DNA from: a phage
Sequence record: PX880103.1
Length of the DNA: 64,000 nt
Strand: one strand, 5' to 3'
The position numbers and the translations under genes were made by a program. Shown here in pieces: positions 11,850 to 21,724 of the stretch (position 1 is the first letter of the stretch; every line of letters begins with the position of its first letter). The notes under the pieces are model-generated. The model did not search any database. It was given only the letters and a program-made list of their open reading frames with translations, and was not told where the DNA came from.

Positions 11850-12320
11850 TTAATCATGTTTCCACACCCCATCGGTATTTGACCAAAGTCGCTGATTATC
11901 TGATCCTCGCCACAGCTTTTTAGTCGGAAGATTTTTCTCATACTTCCCATCAATAATAACATCAACATATTTAAGCATTTCTAGTTGTTTAATATCTTCA
12001 AACTTATATCCTGTCCACAACCAAATGCTTTTATTGGGATAAAGATTTTTTACTGTTTGAACAATGCAATGAATAACATCTCGGTTATCAGGATAGAGAG
12101 GGTCTCCTCCAGTTATAGTTAATCCTTCTATATAATCATTATCCAAACATTCAATTAATTGTTCTAGTGTTTCACCGGTGAATGGAATACCATTTCTAGC
12201 ATTCCATGTTGATTTATTATAACACCCTTCGCATTTATGCAAACAACCTGTAACGAAAAGAACGACCCTGCAACCAGGGCCATTCACAAAATCGCAAGGA
12301 TAAAATCTATCATAATTCAT
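11850..12320 (-). CDS. nrdG: anaerobic ribonucleotide reductase activating protein NrdG (radical SAM)
   Basis: 156 aa, cysteine cluster CLHKCEGCYN, overlaps nrdD stop. Confidence 0.85.
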   Translation of the reverse strand: MNYDRFYPCDFVNGPGCRVVLFVTGCLHKCEGCYNKSTWNARNGIPFTGETLEQLIECLDNDYIEGLTITGGDPLYPDNRDVIHCIVQTVKNLYPNKSIWLWTGYKFEDIKQLEMLKYVDVIIDGKYEKNLPTKKLWRGSDNQRLWSNTDGVWKHD

Positions 12321-14134
12321 TGGTGTTTAACCCTATGCATGATTTCTTTATTTTTACCGAGATTAAATCCGCGCTCGTTCGGATTTCCCAAATAACCACA
12401 TGTTCTTCTTATGGTATTCATCTTTTTAGGATCAGTTTCTCCACAAATAGAACAAACAAATCCATTTTCAGTAGGAGTCATTTCATGGGTACTTCCACAT
12501 GTAAAACATTTATCTACTGGCATATTAACACCAAAATAATCTAAATGTTGTGCAGCATAATCCCATACGGCCTCAAGACCTTTTAAGTTATTTTTCATAT
12601 CAGGAAGTTCAACATAAGAAATGTGACCACCTGTCGCAATGAAATGATACGGCGCTTCACGAGAAATCTTTTCAAACGGAGTAATATTTTCTTCTACTGA
12701 AACATGGAAACTGTTAGTGTACCAGCCTTTATCGGTAACATCTTTTACACTTCCATATTTTTCTGTATCAAGTTTACAGAAGCGATAACAAAGGTTTTCA
12801 GCAGGAGTCGAATATAAACTAAAAGCAAATCCGGTTCTTTCAGTCCACTGTTTAAGATGAGCATTCATTTTAGTTAAAATTTCTCGTCCAATATCACGAC
12901 CGACAAGAATATTCAATTCGTGAATACCAATGTATCCTAAAGACACTGAACTTCTACCGTTTTTAAATAACTCAATTATGTCGTCATCAGGTTTAAGACG
13001 AACCCCGAATGCACCTTCTTGGTAAAGAATAGGAGCAACAGTTGCTTTAACTCCTTTTAAGGAACTAATTCTACACATCAAAGCTTCAAAACACAAATCC
13101 ATTCGTTCATTGAATAATTCAACAAATTTCTGTTCATTGAACTGTGTTCCAATATAAGAATCTAACGCAATGCGAGGAAGATTCAGTGTTACAACACCAA
13201 GATTATTACGTCCATCAAGAATTTCATTGCCAGTCGAATCTTTCCATACGCTCAAAAAACTACGGCAACCCATTGGAGAAACAGGAACAGATGAACCAGT
13301 GATAGCTTTATTGTTCTTAGCTGAAATAATATCAGGATACATCCTTTTGCTTGCACACTCTAGAGCAAGCTGCTTAATATCATAGTTCGGATCGTCTTTA
13401 TAAAGATTAACACCTTCTTCAACGAACATAACAAGCTTAGGGAAAATAGGAGTTATTCCATCACGACCAAGACCTTTAATACGATTTTTCAGAATTGCTT
13501 TCTGAATCATTCGTTCAGTCCAGTCAGTTCCCGTACCAAATGTAATTGTTACAAAAGGAGTCTGTCCGTTTGAACTAAAGAGAGTATTTACTTCATATTC
13601 ATAAGCTTGGAATGCATCGTATACGTCTTTTTCTGTTTTAGATTGAGCATAATTCAACGCATCAGCGATTTGCCATTTTTCTGCATCCTCAATATGTTTT
13701 GCATAGGTGCGTTTAACATAAGGAGAAAGTACTTTATCTACATTCGCAAAAGTCGTTCCGCCATATTGGTGAGAAGCAACTTGTGCAGTAATTTGTGCCA
13801 TAATTGCAGTAGCAACGCCAATTGATTTAGGAGTTTCAATCTGTGCATTACCTAGCTTAAATCCGTTCTCAAGCATTCCTTTTAAATCTACTAAACAGCA
13901 ATTAGTAAATGGAAGAGCAGGGGAATAATCAATATCATGGAAATGAATAATTCCGCTTTCATGCGCTTTCATAATAAAAGACGGGACCATATTTTTGGCA
14001 ATGTGTTTAGACACAATACCAGCCATAAGGTCCCGTTGAGTTGGAAAAACACGAGAATCTTTATTAGCATTCTCGTTTAAAAGGTCTTTATTAGTTTTAT
14101 GAATCAATCCTTCAATTTCTTTTTCAATTGTCAT
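12317..14134 (-). CDS. nrdD: anaerobic ribonucleoside-triphosphate reductase NrdD, uninterrupted
   Basis: 605 aa continuous ORF, glycyl radical motif RRTCGYLG near C-terminus, C-terminal Cys cluster. Confidence 0.9.
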   Translation of the reverse strand: MTIEKEIEGLIHKTNKDLLNENANKDSRVFPTQRDLMAGIVSKHIAKNMVPSFIMKAHESGIIHFHDIDYSPALPFTNCCLVDLKGMLENGFKLGNAQIETPKSIGVATAIMAQITAQVASHQYGGTTFANVDKVLSPYVKRTYAKHIEDAEKWQIADALNYAQSKTEKDVYDAFQAYEYEVNTLFSSNGQTPFVTITFGTGTDWTERMIQKAILKNRIKGLGRDGITPIFPKLVMFVEEGVNLYKDDPNYDIKQLALECASKRMYPDIISAKNNKAITGSSVPVSPMGCRSFLSVWKDSTGNEILDGRNNLGVVTLNLPRIALDSYIGTQFNEQKFVELFNERMDLCFEALMCRISSLKGVKATVAPILYQEGAFGVRLKPDDDIIELFKNGRSSVSLGYIGIHELNILVGRDIGREILTKMNAHLKQWTERTGFAFSLYSTPAENLCYRFCKLDTEKYGSVKDVTDKGWYTNSFHVSVEENITPFEKISREAPYHFIATGGHISYVELPDMKNNLKGLEAVWDYAAQHLDYFGVNMPVDKCFTCGSTHEMTPTENGFVCSICGETDPKKMNTIRRTCGYLGNPNERGFNLGKNKEIMHRVKHQ

Positions 14135-14604
14135 TTTAAACTCTTTCTAAGCTGCTTCTTAAATGAAGCTATTAACTGTGTTTTGGTGTCAGATTCATTA
14201 TATTCAAATCCTCTTTGAAGCATCTCGGCCATCATTTCCTCTTTTCCTAAACGAGAAAATTCCTTTGATTTATCTCCAACAAAGTTAGGGTGAATATTAT
14301 TTTGGGTGTAATCGGATTTTAAATAAGTAAGTAAATTTTCTAACCATTCAAGATAATCAACACCTTGTCCCTTTAAGCCAGAACGATTAAATTTGTGCTT
14401 CATTTGACCTTCTGCAGCATTGCAGAGATTACAAAGCAATCCACGCACCTTTCCTGCTTTTGGTCCATTTAATTCATGGTCATGGTCGAGGTGATTAGCT
14501 TGAACATCAGGATTTAGTTCTCGTTGGCAAATTAAGCATTTACCGTTTTGTGCATCATAAAATTTCTGTTTTTCTTCTTTATATAATTTGCCAGTCAATA
14601 ACAT
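14131..14604 (-). CDS. 49: endonuclease VII (Holliday junction resolvase) gp49
   Basis: 157 aa, MLLTGKLYKEEKQKFYDAQNGKCLICQRELNPDVQANHLDHDHELNGPKAG... matches recalled T4 EndoVII. Confidence 0.9.
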   Translation of the reverse strand: MLLTGKLYKEEKQKFYDAQNGKCLICQRELNPDVQANHLDHDHELNGPKAGKVRGLLCNLCNAAEGQMKHKFNRSGLKGQGVDYLEWLENLLTYLKSDYTQNNIHPNFVGDKSKEFSRLGKEEMMAEMLQRGFEYNESDTKTQLIASFKKQLRKSLK

Positions 14605-16236: not shown

Positions 16237-16479
16237 TTATTCCTTAATTCCTAGTACTTGTTTAAAAGTCTCATCGTAATCAAGACTTTGGCCCGTCTGT
16301 TCTTTATGTTTGTATATAATATCACTTACTTCTGATAGCATATTTTTATATGAACGAGTTAAAGCAGATTTAAGCACGCTGTATCTATCAGGAAATTTAC
16401 CATGTTCATTATAATACGCTATTGCTAATTCACGGACTGCCTTTTCAGCAGTCTCCATATATTCTTTACGCTTTGTCAT
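16237..16479 (-). CDS. hypothetical protein (nrdC.x-like)
   Basis: ORF; ATG start either 16479 or 16458, ORF-track start is an upstream extension. Confidence 0.35.
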
Positions 16480-16780
16480 TTTCTTCTCGGTCAAATCGGT
16501 GTTTACAATGGCGGCATTTATAACGAAGATTACTAGTCTGCCAATGGACCAATTGCACCTGTTCAGTTCCACATTCAGGGCAATTAGGAACGTTTTTAGA
16601 AGCACGTTCGCGACGTTCAACCATAACCATTACAGAATCCCAATTAACAGGAGGGCTATAATCATCACAACCATGAATCTTTCCACGCATTTCCAGATCG
16701 TCTTCTTCACCAGCCATAATAATTTTAATTAGACTAGAATTACTTGAAGCTGCAATGTCTTCTAATAAACGCTTTTTCAT
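16466..16780 (-). CDS. zinc-ribbon protein
   Basis: 104 aa, CPECG...CRHCKH four-Cys ribbon. Confidence 0.45.
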
Positions 16781-17703
16781 TTCAATACCTCAATAGCATT
16801 ACGTAAACCATTTGCTTTGGCGGTTAAAGCCTTGAGAACTTTAGTATGCTCTTCAATTTGTTTTTCAACTTCAACCAAACGAGCATTGAGATATTCGCGT
16901 TCTTCTTTCATAGTATCATTCCCATGATTGGATTTTGGCGTAGGTTTAAATTCACTAGGGTCCTTTAACTTAATAACAAATTTAGTTTCAAACAGTGAAA
17001 GACCATAATTCGTATTATCATCAAAGGATTTGACTACATCCATATCAGATAATAACACGCGCAAATTATAAGCCAAAGAACTAATAGTTTCATTGTGTTT
17101 ATTAGCTTCGCGGGGTTTCATATACGGAAGATTTTTATATATCTCGTGCGGAGCGCAAATTATAATTGACAATTCAAATTGCCCATTCTGGGACGATGGA
17201 GTGAATTTAGCTGTAACCCAGTCTTTTACATTCACATTAATAGTACGGTTATCACCATGACAAAACAGTCTACGAGAATGCTTAAAAAGCATATTCACGT
17301 TATTATTGAATTCGTGTGAAAATTCACTAGCAAATTTTTCTTTACTATCTTTAGAAAACCATTCTTCTAAATAAGTTCTTTTCACGTCGTTAATAATATT
17401 AAATGTAACAACACTAGCATTTGATACATTAGTCTCAATGTAGCTTGGATACATAAATTTTTTAACATTATTAACAGCTATCACAGAAGATAGTAATCGG
17501 GAACGTTTGAACCACTCGAGCAAAGAACCAAGAGAATGTGAATACGCATTTTGTGTATCTTTACAAATATGGTTTTCCCATCCAATATAGTCTAAAAAAT
17601 CACGAAGAATATTATTGATTACTGCTCTGTGTCCTATCTGATAATTACGATGTTTAGTAATAAGACTGTCAAAATAATCAATATAATGTTTACGAGTTTT
17701 CAT
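16777..17703 (-). CDS. hypothetical protein with C-terminal coiled coil (paralog 1)
   Basis: 308 aa, C-terminal heptad-like segment ...[31 protein letters not shown]. Confidence 0.5.
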   Translation of the reverse strand: MKTRKHYIDYFDSLITKHRNYQIGHRAVINNILRDFLDYIGWENHICKDTQNAYSHSLGSLLEWFKRSRLLSSVIAVNNVKKFMYPSYIETNVSNASVVTFNIINDVKRTYLEEWFSKDSKEKFASEFSHEFNNNVNMLFKHSRRLFCHGDNRTINVNVKDWVTAKFTPSSQNGQFELSIIICAPHEIYKNLPYMKPREANKHNETISSLAYNLRVLLSDMDVVKSFDDNTNYGLSLFETKFVIKLKDPSEFKPTPKSNHGNDTMKEEREYLNARLVEVEKQIEEHTKVLKALTAKANGLRNAIEVLK

Positions 17704-17754
17704 GTTCTTCTCACTTGTTAATGATTTATACTCCGAGCCATCCTTGGCTTTAAA

Positions 17755-18756
17755 TTACTTAATTAACTGTAAAGCTTGTTCAAGACGATCCAAGCGATTA
17801 ACAGATTCTTCCCAAATCCTTTTAGCCTGCTCATATTCTTTCTGCGCTTTATTAGAAATTTCTAGAACTTCTTTATAAGCTTTTTCTAGTGCAATAACTT
17901 CTGGACGAATTTCTACCGATTCAGGTGAATCGTCAAGACATTCCATTAGTTCCTCAAGGGTAGTTTCTTCTTTAGGAGTATTCACAATTTCATCACATTT
18001 TTGTTGATAAATTTCTTTATCAGTAGGTGAGTACGCGCACTTTACTTCACGAAGACTAATTACAATTTTATATCCTTCCCAACCGCATATATTCTTAAAA
18101 GGATATGTATGAATATTTTCTACTGTTTCCATACAAAGTAATGCGGTCTCTAATTGACGAGTTATAGTGCTAGCAATTGAGAAAAATTTATTAATATTCT
18201 TTTGGTTAGTTTCTGGTGTAAAAAATCCATAATTCACAAAAATAGCTACTTTATTTTTATCAAGCTCATATTCTTTTATGATAATCATATCAGAAGCCAA
18301 AGGATGAATTTGACGATAATCGCCATAACATAATTTAGAAGCTGATTTTAGAATTTGCTTCTTAAAAAGTCTGAAATTACTAATCCAACGACGAGTAAAA
18401 ATATTCTCAGGGTCTTCTTTGACATTAAGATGATAAGAATTAACATCACCGAACCAATTATATCCTACTACATCTTTGGTTCGTTTAATTTCTTTCCCAA
18501 AATTACCAAGAATATCCCGATTAACCAAATATGAAAGAAGACGAGACTCTTTAAAGGTTTTCTTGATATTATCTTTATCTACACGGCTAGAAATTTTACG
18601 AATTTCATGAATAAATTTAGCAGAAGAAACAATACCTGCATCAACACTATTGAGCCATTGATTGATAATAGAAAGAACGCTATTTTGGCCAAACATCGGT
18701 ATAGCTTTATCATCAATAACGCTATTGAATGATTTGATATATTCGTTACGAGTCAT
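17755..18756 (-). CDS. hypothetical protein with C-terminal coiled coil (paralog 2)
   Basis: 333 aa from ATG (MTRNEYIKSF...); early-promoter motif lies inside the ORF-track N-terminal extension. Confidence 0.5.
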   Translation of the reverse strand: MTRNEYIKSFNSVIDDKAIPMFGQNSVLSIINQWLNSVDAGIVSSAKFIHEIRKISSRVDKDNIKKTFKESRLLSYLVNRDILGNFGKEIKRTKDVVGYNWFGDVNSYHLNVKEDPENIFTRRWISNFRLFKKQILKSASKLCYGDYRQIHPLASDMIIIKEYELDKNKVAIFVNYGFFTPETNQKNINKFFSIASTITRQLETALLCMETVENIHTYPFKNICGWEGYKIVISLREVKCAYSPTDKEIYQQKCDEIVNTPKEETTLEELMECLDDSPESVEIRPEVIALEKAYKEVLEISNKAQKEYEQAKRIWEESVNRLDRLEQALQLIK

Positions 18757-18784
18757 AATAATCTCCTCAGTAGAAAGTAAGAAC

Positions 18785-18814
18785 ATTATACCACATCCTT
18801 GTGGCAAAGTAAAC
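18785..18814 (-). promoter_or_regulatory. T4-type early promoter candidate
   Basis: Minus strand GTTTAC-N18-TGGTATAAT (extended -10), upstream of ATG at 18756. Confidence 0.5.
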
Positions 18815-19833
18815 TAGTTCAGTGCATTTAGTGCATTGTTCAGTTTAGAACGTTGCTTTGTCAGATTTTGAACCCTTGACTGAGCTTGTTCTAACACCTT
18901 TTCAGCTTCTAGCACTTCATTGGTCGCTTTAATGAGTTCAGCATCTACTGCCTTAAGAGACTTCTCAATCGCGTCAGCGTGCCATTTTTCTACAGGTTTA
19001 AAATTTGAATTTTCAGTAGGAAGAAAACTCACTTTATTAAGTTTACATGCATCTATATTGCTTGAGCTATACATCCAAAATTTAGGATCGTTTGATGAGT
19101 AATTGGATAAATTTAAGATATCTTGCACTTCCTGCTTTTTCTCTCGCGGGACTTCGTCCTTTCTCAAAAAATCGTATTTAAATGAAACGATCATATCAAG
19201 TTCATATGTTGTTGTGTCTAATTTAAATCGCTCAAAACGAGGTAAAATCTTAGACTGAACAGCGGCAACAACATCCATATACTTAAATGCTTCTGTCAAC
19301 TGCGATTTAAGGCATTCGCAAATTGAAAGAGAATTTTTTGTATTAGGTTTAAAGCTAATTCGTGCAGTTCTGTTATTTTCTTTTAATGGTCTTACTTCCA
19401 TCTGAAGAGTATAACCATCAAATTTCAGATTCTTTAAGTTAATATCAGAACCTTTTAATCGACTAGCCGTCGACAAAATTTGCTTTAATTGTTTACGGAA
19501 TAGAGCAATAAATCTCCATTCAATACGATAATGATTTGGATTGAAAAATCCAGATGATAAATCGACCTTACTCTGACCAACACCTTGAACAAATAGAGGA
19601 TTTTTATAATCAATAGTTTTACAGAAATCAACGAGCTGCTCACGAGCCGTCATTTGTGTAATATACCCTGCTTCGTTAAAATGACGTAACCATTCACTGC
19701 TATTCATATACTTAAAGTGAATGGAACTATTAACTCTATCAGGGTCTAAATTATTTTCACACAAAAATGTCATAACATCACGAGTATAACTGGCATTACG
19801 AACCATATCTTCAATTTGAGAACGAGTTTTCAT
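18814..19833 (-). CDS. hypothetical protein with C-terminal coiled coil (paralog 3)
   Basis: 339 aa, C-terminal ...EAEKVLEQAQSRVQNLTKQRSKLNNALNALN. Confidence 0.5.
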   Translation of the reverse strand: MKTRSQIEDMVRNASYTRDVMTFLCENNLDPDRVNSSIHFKYMNSSEWLRHFNEAGYITQMTAREQLVDFCKTIDYKNPLFVQGVGQSKVDLSSGFFNPNHYRIEWRFIALFRKQLKQILSTASRLKGSDINLKNLKFDGYTLQMEVRPLKENNRTARISFKPNTKNSLSICECLKSQLTEAFKYMDVVAAVQSKILPRFERFKLDTTTYELDMIVSFKYDFLRKDEVPREKKQEVQDILNLSNYSSNDPKFWMYSSSNIDACKLNKVSFLPTENSNFKPVEKWHADAIEKSLKAVDAELIKATNEVLEAEKVLEQAQSRVQNLTKQRSKLNNALNALN

Positions 19834-19841
19834 GGTGTTCC

Positions 19842-20756
19842 TTAAGATTTAAGTAAATCAACAATTTTAATTAACTTTTCACGCTCAGATTTAGCTTTAC
19901 TACTCAGTCCAGATAGTCTGAAAATTTCATCATCATATTGCTGAATAGAAATATTCAGCTCTTCAATCTGCTTATTAAAATAATCAATTTGTTCAGAATG
20001 TTTTTCGTTACTACGAAATGGTACAGGTTTTGTAGGCAATTTAGTTAAACTGGATTCATCCGGGCGATAAATTAAAATACAATTTGAACCAATCGGGCAT
20101 TTTGCCCCAGATGAATATTCTAATGTTCCAGCTTCTTTTAAAATTTCAAAAGCTAAACAGAGATGATGCCCCATATTAACATAATCTGTAGAGTGAGCTC
20201 TGACGTAATAATCATCTCCACGAGTGCTAAATTTAAAGCATTTAAGGTCTTCTGTATTATTGGTCTTAAAAATCATTTGTTTATCTAGACCTTTAGCTAA
20301 TCGAGCGCCTAATGCTAATAATCGTCGTTGATTTTCCCACAAATCCGCAATCATTTGATCGAATGATAATTTCGGCATTAGTCGACCATAAAGGTCATAT
20401 CCTTTATTATAATTGCGAAGGATTTCACTCGCATTAATACGAGACAACGCTCCAATTTTATTAAGGGCTTTCATGATGCGATTAGATAAACTCATTCCAG
20501 ACCCATTTGTTCGCTGTAAATGTTTTTCTAATCCAAATCCAATATCAACTTTAAATTTATCTAAAATTTTGGCATGAACATCTCTGTCAATAACATTCAA
20601 ATCCAAAGTTGGGTTAAATCTATGAAAAAATTTATCTGGCTCTCCACGACGAAGTACAGTCCATTCATTCATCATTTTTTTATTAACTAAGGATTTAATT
20701 ACTGCATTGACATTATTAATTACTACTGACATATTTTCCTCACTCAATTTTACCAA
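19842..20756 (-). CDS. hypothetical protein with C-terminal coiled coil (paralog 4)
   Basis: 304 aa, C-terminal ...IEELNISIQQYDDEIFRLSGLSSKAKSEREKLIKIVDLLKS. Confidence 0.5.
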   Translation of the reverse strand: MVKLSEENMSVVINNVNAVIKSLVNKKMMNEWTVLRRGEPDKFFHRFNPTLDLNVIDRDVHAKILDKFKVDIGFGLEKHLQRTNGSGMSLSNRIMKALNKIGALSRINASEILRNYNKGYDLYGRLMPKLSFDQMIADLWENQRRLLALGARLAKGLDKQMIFKTNNTEDLKCFKFSTRGDDYYVRAHSTDYVNMGHHLCLAFEILKEAGTLEYSSGAKCPIGSNCILIYRPDESSLTKLPTKPVPFRSNEKHSEQIDYFNKQIEELNISIQQYDDEIFRLSGLSSKAKSEREKLIKIVDLLKS

Positions 20757-21196: not shown

Positions 21197-21724
21197 TTAT
21201 GCGAGTACCGTCTTTAACCGTTCTTCAAACTTCCGAAGAGTATTCTGGCGTTCAGCTCTTTGCTTTTTGTAAGTTTCAATACGCTCTGAAATGAGAGTGT
21301 ATCGTTCATTTACTGATTCTTTCATAAAATCAGGAATTTCACGAGAAGCTTTAATCTCATCAAATTTATCAATAACAGCTTGCTCTTCAGCAATTAAGTT
21401 ATCATACATCAAAATATCTTTCTTGATGAACTCAATATCTTCTTGAGTTACACGAGATAATTTAGATGCTTTATCCTTTTTGTACTGTTCGTTAGTATCA
21501 CGAGACCAGTGTAATGTACGATTTTTATTCGTATTCTTGTAAATTTCTACAATACCAATCTCATCAATAATAACGATCCAATTCCAACGGGATTTGTAAA
21601 TTTGTCCTCCATCAACCGTGATTTCACCTCCGATTGAGATGTCATTAAAGAACTTGCTTTGTGCTTCTGATTTAAATTTACCATCGTTGTAATTTACCAG
21701 GTTGAAAATATCTTTAGCGTTCAT
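21197..21724 (-). CDS. hypothetical protein
   Basis: 175 aa from ATG (MNAKDIFNLV...); upstream extension is promoter sequence. Confidence 0.45.
   Translation of the reverse strand: MNAKDIFNLVNYNDGKFKSEAQSKFFNDISIGGEITVDGGQIYKSRWNWIVIIDEIGIVEIYKNTNKNRTLHWSRDTNEQYKKDKASKLSRVTQEDIEFIKKDILMYDNLIAEEQAVIDKFDEIKASREIPDFMKESVNERYTLISERIETYKKQRAERQNTLRKFEERLKTVLA

Follow-up and report, generated by a model that had tools for sequence, protein, structure and literature searches.

A probable superfamily of four early genes, nrdC.3 to nrdC.6, in a T4-like phage, with an in-phase C-terminal coiled coil and a possible role in counter-defence

We analysed a 64,000-nucleotide stretch of phage DNA (sequence record PX880103.1; hereafter the window) and, within it, four adjacent genes on the minus strand that occupy about 4 kb of the early region. 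Judged by sequence, the window is a segment of a Tequatrovirus genome: the 3,980-base region that holds the four genes has a nucleotide identity of 95-96% to T4 and T2 along the whole 4 kb, and of the 507 phage records that match it, 462 do so over at least 80% of its length. By protein identity, and by an order between nrdC.2 and nrdC.7 that is the same as in the T4 and T2 annotation, the four open reading frames (ORFs) are the orthologues of T4 nrdC.3, nrdC.4, nrdC.5 and nrdC.6. They are thus known T4 ORFs, one with a published function, and not a new kind of system. The initial annotation of the window had correctly placed four adjacent same-strand ORFs here, on the minus strand; the T4 counterpart that it named, nrdC.4-nrdC.9, was wrong. 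Below, C3, C4, C5 and C6 are shorthand for NrdC.3, NrdC.4, NrdC.5 and NrdC.6. The genes, with lengths in amino acids (aa), and a putative promoter are:

16777-17703, minus strand: nrdC.3 orthologue, 308 aa; identity to NrdC.3 of T4 92%, of T2 98%
17755-18756, minus strand: nrdC.4 orthologue, 333 aa; 97% identity to T4 NrdC.4
18785-18813, minus strand: putative T4-early-type promoter (GTTTACT, 17 nt, TGgTATAAT); 10/12 matches with the TG in a consensus scan
18814-19833, minus strand: nrdC.5 orthologue, 339 aa, DUF7235; 92% identity to T4 NrdC.5
19842-20732, minus strand: nrdC.6 orthologue, 296 aa; 98% identity to T4 NrdC.6; the most divergent family member

The nrdC.4 start is an ATG downstream of a GAGGAG ribosome-binding site (RBS). 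The nrdC.6 start is the ATG at 20732, behind a GAGGAAA RBS, in agreement with the T4 annotation, and all NrdC.6 homologues begin at the same 'MS...' ATG; the TTG further upstream (20756), which gives 304 aa, is not preceded by an RBS, and a gene that started there would overlap nrdC.7 at its end. The lengths of 308, 333 and 339 aa first given for the other ORFs stand, and the 304 aa of the fourth becomes 296. The gap between nrdC.5 and nrdC.4 is 57 nt and the other gaps are 51, 8 and 7 nt. The promoter match lies directly after the nrdC.5 stop codon and ahead of the nrdC.4 RBS; if it acts as its consensus match suggests, it may give nrdC.4 and nrdC.3 a separate early transcript. Plus-strand ORFs across the region are short and look spurious. 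For all four minus-strand genes the ratio of nonsynonymous to synonymous substitution rates (dN/dS) is well below 1, which marks them as real coding genes.

Database families split the four. In PHROG, C3 and C4 both match phrog_1435 end to end, with expectation values (E) of 2.9e-101 and 6.6e-168, respectively; C5 goes to phrog_2351 and C6 to phrog_2257. NrdC.5 matches Pfam PF23882 (DUF7235) over residues 1-339 with 375.3 bits (E 3.5e-112), against a gathering threshold of 30 bits. The other proteins do not reach that threshold: NrdC.3 scores 13.9 bits, from the coiled coil alone, and NrdC.4 and NrdC.6 have no match. Homologues at 88-97% identity carry precomputed PF26897 (NrdC.3/4) and PF26899 (NrdC.6) tags; the window proteins matched neither model in a scan of a Pfam-A copy that seems to lack both. 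Scans of Pfam and NCBIfam gave none of the four proteins a match to a thioredoxin family, and a thioredoxin or glutaredoxin identity was rejected for want of a thioredoxin-fold domain match. Many GenBank phage records nevertheless label nrdC.3-6, and also nrdC.8-11, as 'thioredoxin'. None of these has a thioredoxin-family match, and the label appears to have been copied from the locus name nrdC.x.

Common to all four proteins is a long C-terminal heptad helix. The last 46-57 residues of each form a single unbroken heptad register, the four registers are in the same phase at the C-terminus, and 79-94% of the a and d positions are hydrophobic compared with 18-26% elsewhere:

16780-16917, minus strand: NrdC.3 heptad helix, aa 263-308; hydrophobic a/d share 0.85 versus 0.24 elsewhere
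17758-17904, minus strand: NrdC.4 heptad helix, aa 285-333 (AlphaFold2 helix 285-332); a/d share 0.79
18817-18987, minus strand: NrdC.5 heptad helix, aa 283-339 (AlphaFold2 helix 283-338); a/d share 0.94
19845-20006, minus strand: NrdC.6 heptad helix, aa 243-296, with a possible kink at SGLSS; a/d share 0.80

The helix that the initial annotation had proposed for each ORF is thus borne out, by this register in all four and by AlphaFold2 helices of 48 (C4) and 56 (C5) residues. When a sliding heptad score was compared with 200 shuffles, 0 (C3), 8 (C4), 1 (C5) and 1 (C6) of them scored as high as the real sequence; the score is a crude measure, on which C4 is marginal while being clear in its structure model. 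The helix is better conserved than the globular part in C3 (0.82 versus 0.71), C4 (0.68 versus 0.54) and C6 (0.65 versus 0.52), and its surface positions (b, c, e, f and g; 0.80, 0.65 and 0.61 in C3, C4 and C6) are about as conserved as its core. In the NrdC.6 family the DDEI.RL, K..ER and LLK motifs of the helix are invariant, and the NrdC.5 coiled coil is the most variable of the four. Between paralogues the helix sequences differ strongly, except in the last nine residues. Across all 18,822 residues of the window ORFs, this ending, L..[AIV][LIV].[LVAI][LI][KN], is present exactly at the four C-termini and nowhere else; the pattern is descriptive, having been derived post hoc from the same sequences.

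Among the members, only NrdC.4 gave a confident AlphaFold2 model (34-sequence alignment; predicted local distance difference test (pLDDT) 83.6, predicted template modelling score 0.68). In this model an N-terminal part (helices within 3-84) is followed by an alpha/beta core at 88-259, made up of a three-stranded meander (88-110), helices (119-148), a hairpin (158-174), a helix (185-208), a second hairpin (212-235) and a helix (246-259); a low-confidence linker then leads to the single helix 285-332. The NrdC.5 model (20 sequences, mean identity 89%) has a pLDDT of 44, with only helix 283-338 trustworthy (pLDDT up to 92), and was of no use for a fold search. The proposed common architecture is an N-terminal helical bundle, an alpha/beta core, a flexible linker and a long heptad helix that runs to the C-terminal end.

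Outside the coiled coil, kinship had to be sought with profiles. Pairwise BLASTP among the four proteins gave only C3-C4 as weakly significant (E 0.001). By hhalign, C3 and C4 align at a probability of 98% (E 1e-13, 214 columns), and the C4 hidden Markov model (HMM) matches every NrdC.3 (E 1e-13 to 6e-18). Family-to-family hhalign with narrower alignments gave P 0.005 for C4-C5, 0.0019 for C4-C6 (134 collinear columns) and 0.06 for C5-C6, and the significance of the C5 and C6 links needed enlarged, verified profiles. For C3/C4 against C5, the value moved from P 0.016 with six close C5 sequences, through 5e-4 and 8.5e-6 with partial additions, to E 4.9e-7 (92.5%) with all eleven C5 sequences. 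Matches to the pure C5 HMM at E 2e-7 to 1e-37 mark the added sequences as true C5 relatives, and none of them matches the C3/4 HMM, so the link is not a product of contamination. As a control, column permutation gave a null score of 14.3 +/- 2.2 with a maximum of 24.5, and the reversed profile 15.8, compared with 56.2 observed.

Homologues from other phages bridge the same gap. Two positional homologues do so at E 9e-7 and 9e-9: gp070 of Klebsiella phage JD18, which matches C3/4 (E 1.2e-6), and gp078 of Salmonella phage CGG4-1, which matches C5 over 278 columns (E 1.9e-6). Aligned together, the two sequences match both families at 91-96%, and through bridging homologues the C3/4-C5 link rises to 96-97%. 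PHROG cross-matches connect phrog_1435, 2351, 26858, 33957, 12512, 23608 and 31182. Where C4 70-226 aligns to C5 54-203, the order of secondary structure agrees between the two models, that of C5 being weak. The start M(K)TR..[YFI] is exact in C3 and C5, near in C4 (MTRNEY) and not present in C6. Taken together, the profile comparisons argue strongly that C3, C4 and C5 are homologous.

NrdC.6 is the outlier. Against single families it gave hhalign P values of 0.002-0.06, against a merged C3+C4+C5 profile 7e-4, and against a superfamily profile that includes the two bridging sequences a match at 80% (E 1.4e-5, score 46.1). The aligned part consists of two collinear helices, 'K.SRLLS..VN.DIL..F' and 'F..N.K.ILK.A.KL', neither of which belongs to the coiled coil; the beta-meander that lies between these conserved helices is missing from C6. 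None of 60 column permutations (maximum 20.3) and none of 60 block-of-12 permutations (maximum 25.7) reached 46.1, and against the superfamily profile no other window protein that is 150 aa or longer (48 in all) scores above 20.3. We conclude that C6 is probably a more distant member of the superfamily. The profile alignments proposed with the initial annotation thus support paralogy, with C6 as the weakest link, and since hhalign similarity extends outside the coiled coil for all four proteins, the coiled coil is not their only resemblance.

The best-scoring non-member against the superfamily profile is nrdC.8 (20.3, within noise), which was rejected as a fifth member because it shows no homology (hhalign P >= 0.05). 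The nrdC.8 gene (21197-21724, minus strand, 175 aa) also ends in a heptad-like, charged C-terminal helix (…ERYTLISERIETYKKQRAERQNTLRKFEERLKTVLA).

All members of the NrdC.3-6 superfamily that we found come from T4-like phages (Straboviridae), where they lie next to the glutaredoxin gene nrdC. An exhaustive search with the C5 profile returned 13 relatives among 1.84 billion representatives, with no bridge to the other three proteins' families and no cellular homologue, and related-locus searches in IMG/VR gave 2 and 15 loci, all close, with few new relatives. 'Bacterial' matches lie on ~167 kb contigs and are read as phage genomes inside bacterial assemblies. Foldseek comparison of the C4 model with BFVD gave 17 matches at E < 1e-3, all uncharacterised and mostly of 300-370 aa; the hosts of the T4-like phages concerned are Enterobacter, Pectobacterium, Yersinia, Acinetobacter, Erwinia, Serratia and Klebsiella. 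The C4, C5 and C6 profiles met only unrelated chance matches among all PDB chain sequences (E 0.025-0.78), and no solved structure or cellular homologue was found for the family. NCBIfam and the EVADES supplement hold nothing on these proteins. Pseudotevenvirus (CfP1) and Slopekvirus (Matisse) have no family member at this locus.

Some related sequences stand apart. In P0230 (173 aa), a near-identical NrdC.5 coiled coil follows an N-terminus that is unrelated; as no sequenced phage has a full-length copy, and as the protein may be either a short, divergent homologue or a metagenomic artefact, it was dropped as evidence for module swapping. P0236, a 302-aa tandem-repeat protein, has five matches to the C5 profile that are probably spurious. 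In Jiaodavirus and Gelderlandvirus a conserved ~260-aa gene and a DUF4031 gene always precede the single family member; the ~260-aa gene, at 17140-17928 in the JD18 locus (L011) and 13418-14200 in the CGG4-1 locus (L030), is unrelated to the family. Acinetobacter phage Abraxas encodes a 343-aa protein beside its glutaredoxin gene (locus L012, 18392-19423) with an M-T-T-R start and a C-terminal heptad helix. The Acinetobacter-phage homologue falls into two deep allele classes, with >95% and ~35% identity. The fHyAci03 relative, 36% identical to the Abraxas protein, sits where a 335-aa fHyAci03 protein, a Foldseek match of the NrdC.4 model, would be encoded, and the two may be the same protein.

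The content of the array differs between genera:

Tequatrovirus: C6-C5-C4-C3
RB69: C6-C5-C3
Mosigvirus ESCO47: C6-C3
Dhakavirus JS10 and Gaprivervirus CJ20: C6-C5like-C4
Jiaodavirus and Gelderlandvirus: a single member

At the C3/C4 position, only C4 is present in Dhakavirus and Gaprivervirus, and only C3 in Mosigvirus. This distribution points to a recent duplication for C3/C4 and to older lineages for C5 and C6; the local duplication suggested by the initial annotation therefore holds for the first pair and not for the other two genes. Within Tequatrovirus, NrdC.3 occurs in two allele classes, with >90% and ~60% identity. In T2, nrdC.4 and nrdC.6 are split by frameshifts (locus L001, 4982-5921 and 7069-7902), LYE-01 (L029) has no nrdC.4, and in ACG-C40 (L004, 7802-8213) nrdC.4 is absent and only a short nrdC.5 N-terminus and the nrdC.3 C-terminus are left. 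The metagenomic protein P0056 is an in-frame NrdC.5-NrdC.3 fusion. Values of dN/dS are 0.17-0.36 for C3-C5 and 0.08-0.15 for C6, compared with 0-0.08 for flanking genes, and across the same phages protein identity is 60-99% for the four genes and 97-100% for the flanks. The four genes thus evolve several times faster than their flanks and vary in copy number from 1 to 4 through loss, frameshift and fusion.

Two further genes of the window are worth recording. The protein of nrdC.2 (16466-16780, minus strand) is only 58-100% identical among Tequatroviruses, with dS up to 1.3, and is as variable as the four, in contrast to nrdC, nrdC.1 and nrdC.8-11 (97-100%); it may be another arms-race gene. 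The nrdD gene (12317-14134, minus strand) is an uninterrupted 605-aa ORF where the T4 reference has the I-TevII group I intron, so that the window phage is intron-less at nrdD, like T2.

The 'unknown function' first assigned to the four genes is out of date for nrdC.5, whose T4 orthologue counteracts Dsr1: a T4 deletion clone does not plate on ECOR17 or on MG1655 with ECOR17 dsr1, and expression of nrdC.5 restores plating (PMC9391042, Srikant, Guegler and Laub 2022). The Dsr1 enzyme, a SIR2 NADase, has a TPR sensor that is triggered by the phage major capsid protein (PMC12803255, preprint). The third ORF of the window shares with T4 NrdC.5 the full-length DUF7235 match, the position and the early transcription unit, and at 92% identity its allele may share the anti-Dsr1 role of the T4 orthologue. 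The other three ORFs share the NrdC.5 architecture and are its remote homologues, NrdC.6 probably so, but none of them reaches the DUF7235 threshold. On a laboratory strain, T4 can dispense with each of the four genes (HIDEN-SEQ supplement).

The neighbourhood is one of counter-defence. Nearby, gp49.2 and NrdC.1 inhibit OLD and Septu (PMC13096335; bioRxiv 10.1101/2025.11.20.689424); the gp49.2 of the window is 99% identical to that of T4, and its NrdC.1 hardly varies among the Tequatrovirus loci compared (99-100% identity). The T4 pin-nrdC.2 cluster (gp49.2 anti-OLD, NrdC.1 anti-Septu) and the dmd-tifA-adfA 'anti-TA island' (TA, toxin-antitoxin) both consist of small dispensable early genes, hypervariable between T-even phages and directed at one defence each. 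They have the same genomic neighbourhood and logic as nrdC.3-6. The proteins of these clusters are unrelated, single-copy and of 80-106 aa, whereas nrdC.3-6 are a tandem array of what is probably one duplicated ~300-aa fold with a common putative oligomerisation tail.

The nearest functional analogue for NrdC.5 may be DSAD1 of phage SPbeta, which inhibits the DSR2 sirtuin defence; it is likewise encoded by a phage and silences an NADase that has a SIR2 domain and a sensor for a virion protein. The likeness would lie in occupation of the sensor. DSAD1 differs in its target, DSR2, and in the host clade. No sequence or structural similarity was found, there being no DSAD1 chain in the profile searches with C4, C5 and C6 of a PDB set that, to judge by the published DSR2-DSAD1 cryo-EM papers, should include such chains, and none among the structural matches listed. 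We know of no report of a C-terminal coiled coil in DSAD1.

The genes are dispensable, evolve fast, vary in copy number and are expressed early, and one of them is a proven anti-defence gene; on these five points together we favour, with moderate confidence, the reading that the four are diverged members of one superfamily of diversifying early counter-defence proteins, each with a variable head on an oligomerising stalk. In such a protein the coiled-coil tail would make homo-oligomers, and the target of the variable head would be one specific immune protein of the host. If NrdC.5 works in the way of DSAD1 and DSR2, it would most simply occupy Dsr1 before the late major capsid protein gp23, the trigger of Dsr1, appears. 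Duplication and divergence of the head would then produce inhibitors of different defences, with NrdC.3, NrdC.4 and NrdC.6 targeting other systems.

More tentatively, and with clearly less confidence, the array may be a modular counter-immunity cassette of the Straboviridae, in which a coiled-coil stalk and an alpha/beta head are duplicated, swapped as allele classes and lost, each copy blinding a different immune sensor, perhaps also as mixed oligomers. If so, NrdC.3, NrdC.4 and NrdC.6 and the relatives in Klebsiella, Salmonella and Acinetobacter phages would amount to three or more undiscovered anti-defence proteins.

Several observations weigh against a counter-defence superfamily of four. 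An experimental function is available for one gene of the four (nrdC.5), and HIDEN-SEQ screens on clinical strains reported nrdC.1 and none of these genes. The gene-wide dN/dS below 1 fits relaxed constraint as well as diversifying selection. The common fold is seen directly only for C4 and distant BFVD relatives, the NrdC.5 model having the low pLDDT given above, and no entry from an Escherichia phage with the size of C5 or C6 is recognisable in the list of 50 BFVD matches. The C6 link itself is made by ~70 aligned columns at 80% probability; HMM-to-sequence scores of C6 are not significant (E 0.04-0.16) and there is no PHROG cross-match for C6.

Alternatively, the family may be real and counter-defence the property of NrdC.5 alone, the other paralogues having another early role in host takeover or being redundant copies that drift to loss, which we consider somewhat unlikely. 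Neither the four papers found to name any of these genes nor the HIDEN-SEQ screens give nrdC.3, nrdC.4 or nrdC.6 a phenotype, nrdC.4 and nrdC.6 are frameshifted in T2, nrdC.4 is absent from LYE-01 and ACG-C40, and a dN/dS of 0.2-0.36 fits relaxed constraint. That ratio is still well below 1, however, full-length copies are retained in >460 of the 507 sequenced relatives, and the C-terminal helix and the two core helices are strongly conserved within each family. The genes also lie among proven anti-defence genes, and presence/absence polymorphism is itself typical of such genes.

It is unlikely that only C3-C5 are paralogous, with NrdC.6 having no kinship to them and owing its similar C-terminal coiled coil to acquisition or convergence. 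Pairwise BLAST finds nothing for it, family-to-family hhalign without the enlarged superfamily profile stays at the P values of 0.002-0.06, Pfam files it separately (PF26899) and it has no M(K)TR..[YFI] start. The superfamily match nevertheless falls on two collinear helices that are not coiled coil, none of the 120 permutations reaches its score, which is well above those of the 48 real window proteins, and the signal rose from P 7e-4 as diversity increased. In addition, C4 is the best non-self match of the C6 HMM in the window, and C6 has the same length class, the same C-terminal heptad phase and a conserved first array position in four genera.

A quite different arrangement, in which the four proteins zip by their C-terminal helices into a hetero-oligomer and act as a single multi-headed early complex, seems improbable to us. 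The common heptad phase and terminal motif L..[AIV][LIV]..L[KN] of all four would allow it, the equal conservation of helix surface and core in C3, C4 and C6 suggests a specific partner, and the genes are co-transcribed neighbours. Yet natural phages have 1, 2, 3 or 4 members in varied combinations, which argues against an obligate complex, and the helices of the paralogues are strongly different apart from their last nine residues. Plasmid-borne nrdC.5 alone, moreover, rescues the mutant on Dsr1 cells, although which paralogues that mutant kept is unclear.

That the alpha/beta core is a decoy that mimics the phage tail-terminator protein and titrates host sensors of virion proteins deserves almost no credence: the likeness to tail terminators (lambda gpU fold) was rejected as too weak, since it is below usual significance and Foldseek did not detect it, the sequences are not similar, and nrdC.3-6 are early rather than late genes with additional N-terminal and coiled-coil parts.

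The reading that we favour, a diversifying superfamily of early counter-defence proteins, bears on a reference model of phage biology, the T-even phages, in which this early region of ~4 kb is still labelled 'hypothetical' or, wrongly, 'thioredoxin'. What is new here is the union of the four genes in one superfamily with an in-phase coiled-coil tail, its reach into other Straboviridae, and the nomination of nrdC.3, nrdC.4 and nrdC.6 as candidate anti-defence genes by their kinship to the Dsr1-defeating nrdC.5. The combination of a conserved coiled-coil tail with a variable head points to one mechanism common to the family, which may be generalised to the homologues in therapy phages of Klebsiella, Salmonella and Acinetobacter. 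Membership of such a family would also explain why this locus varies between otherwise near-identical phages, and so bears on the prediction of host range.

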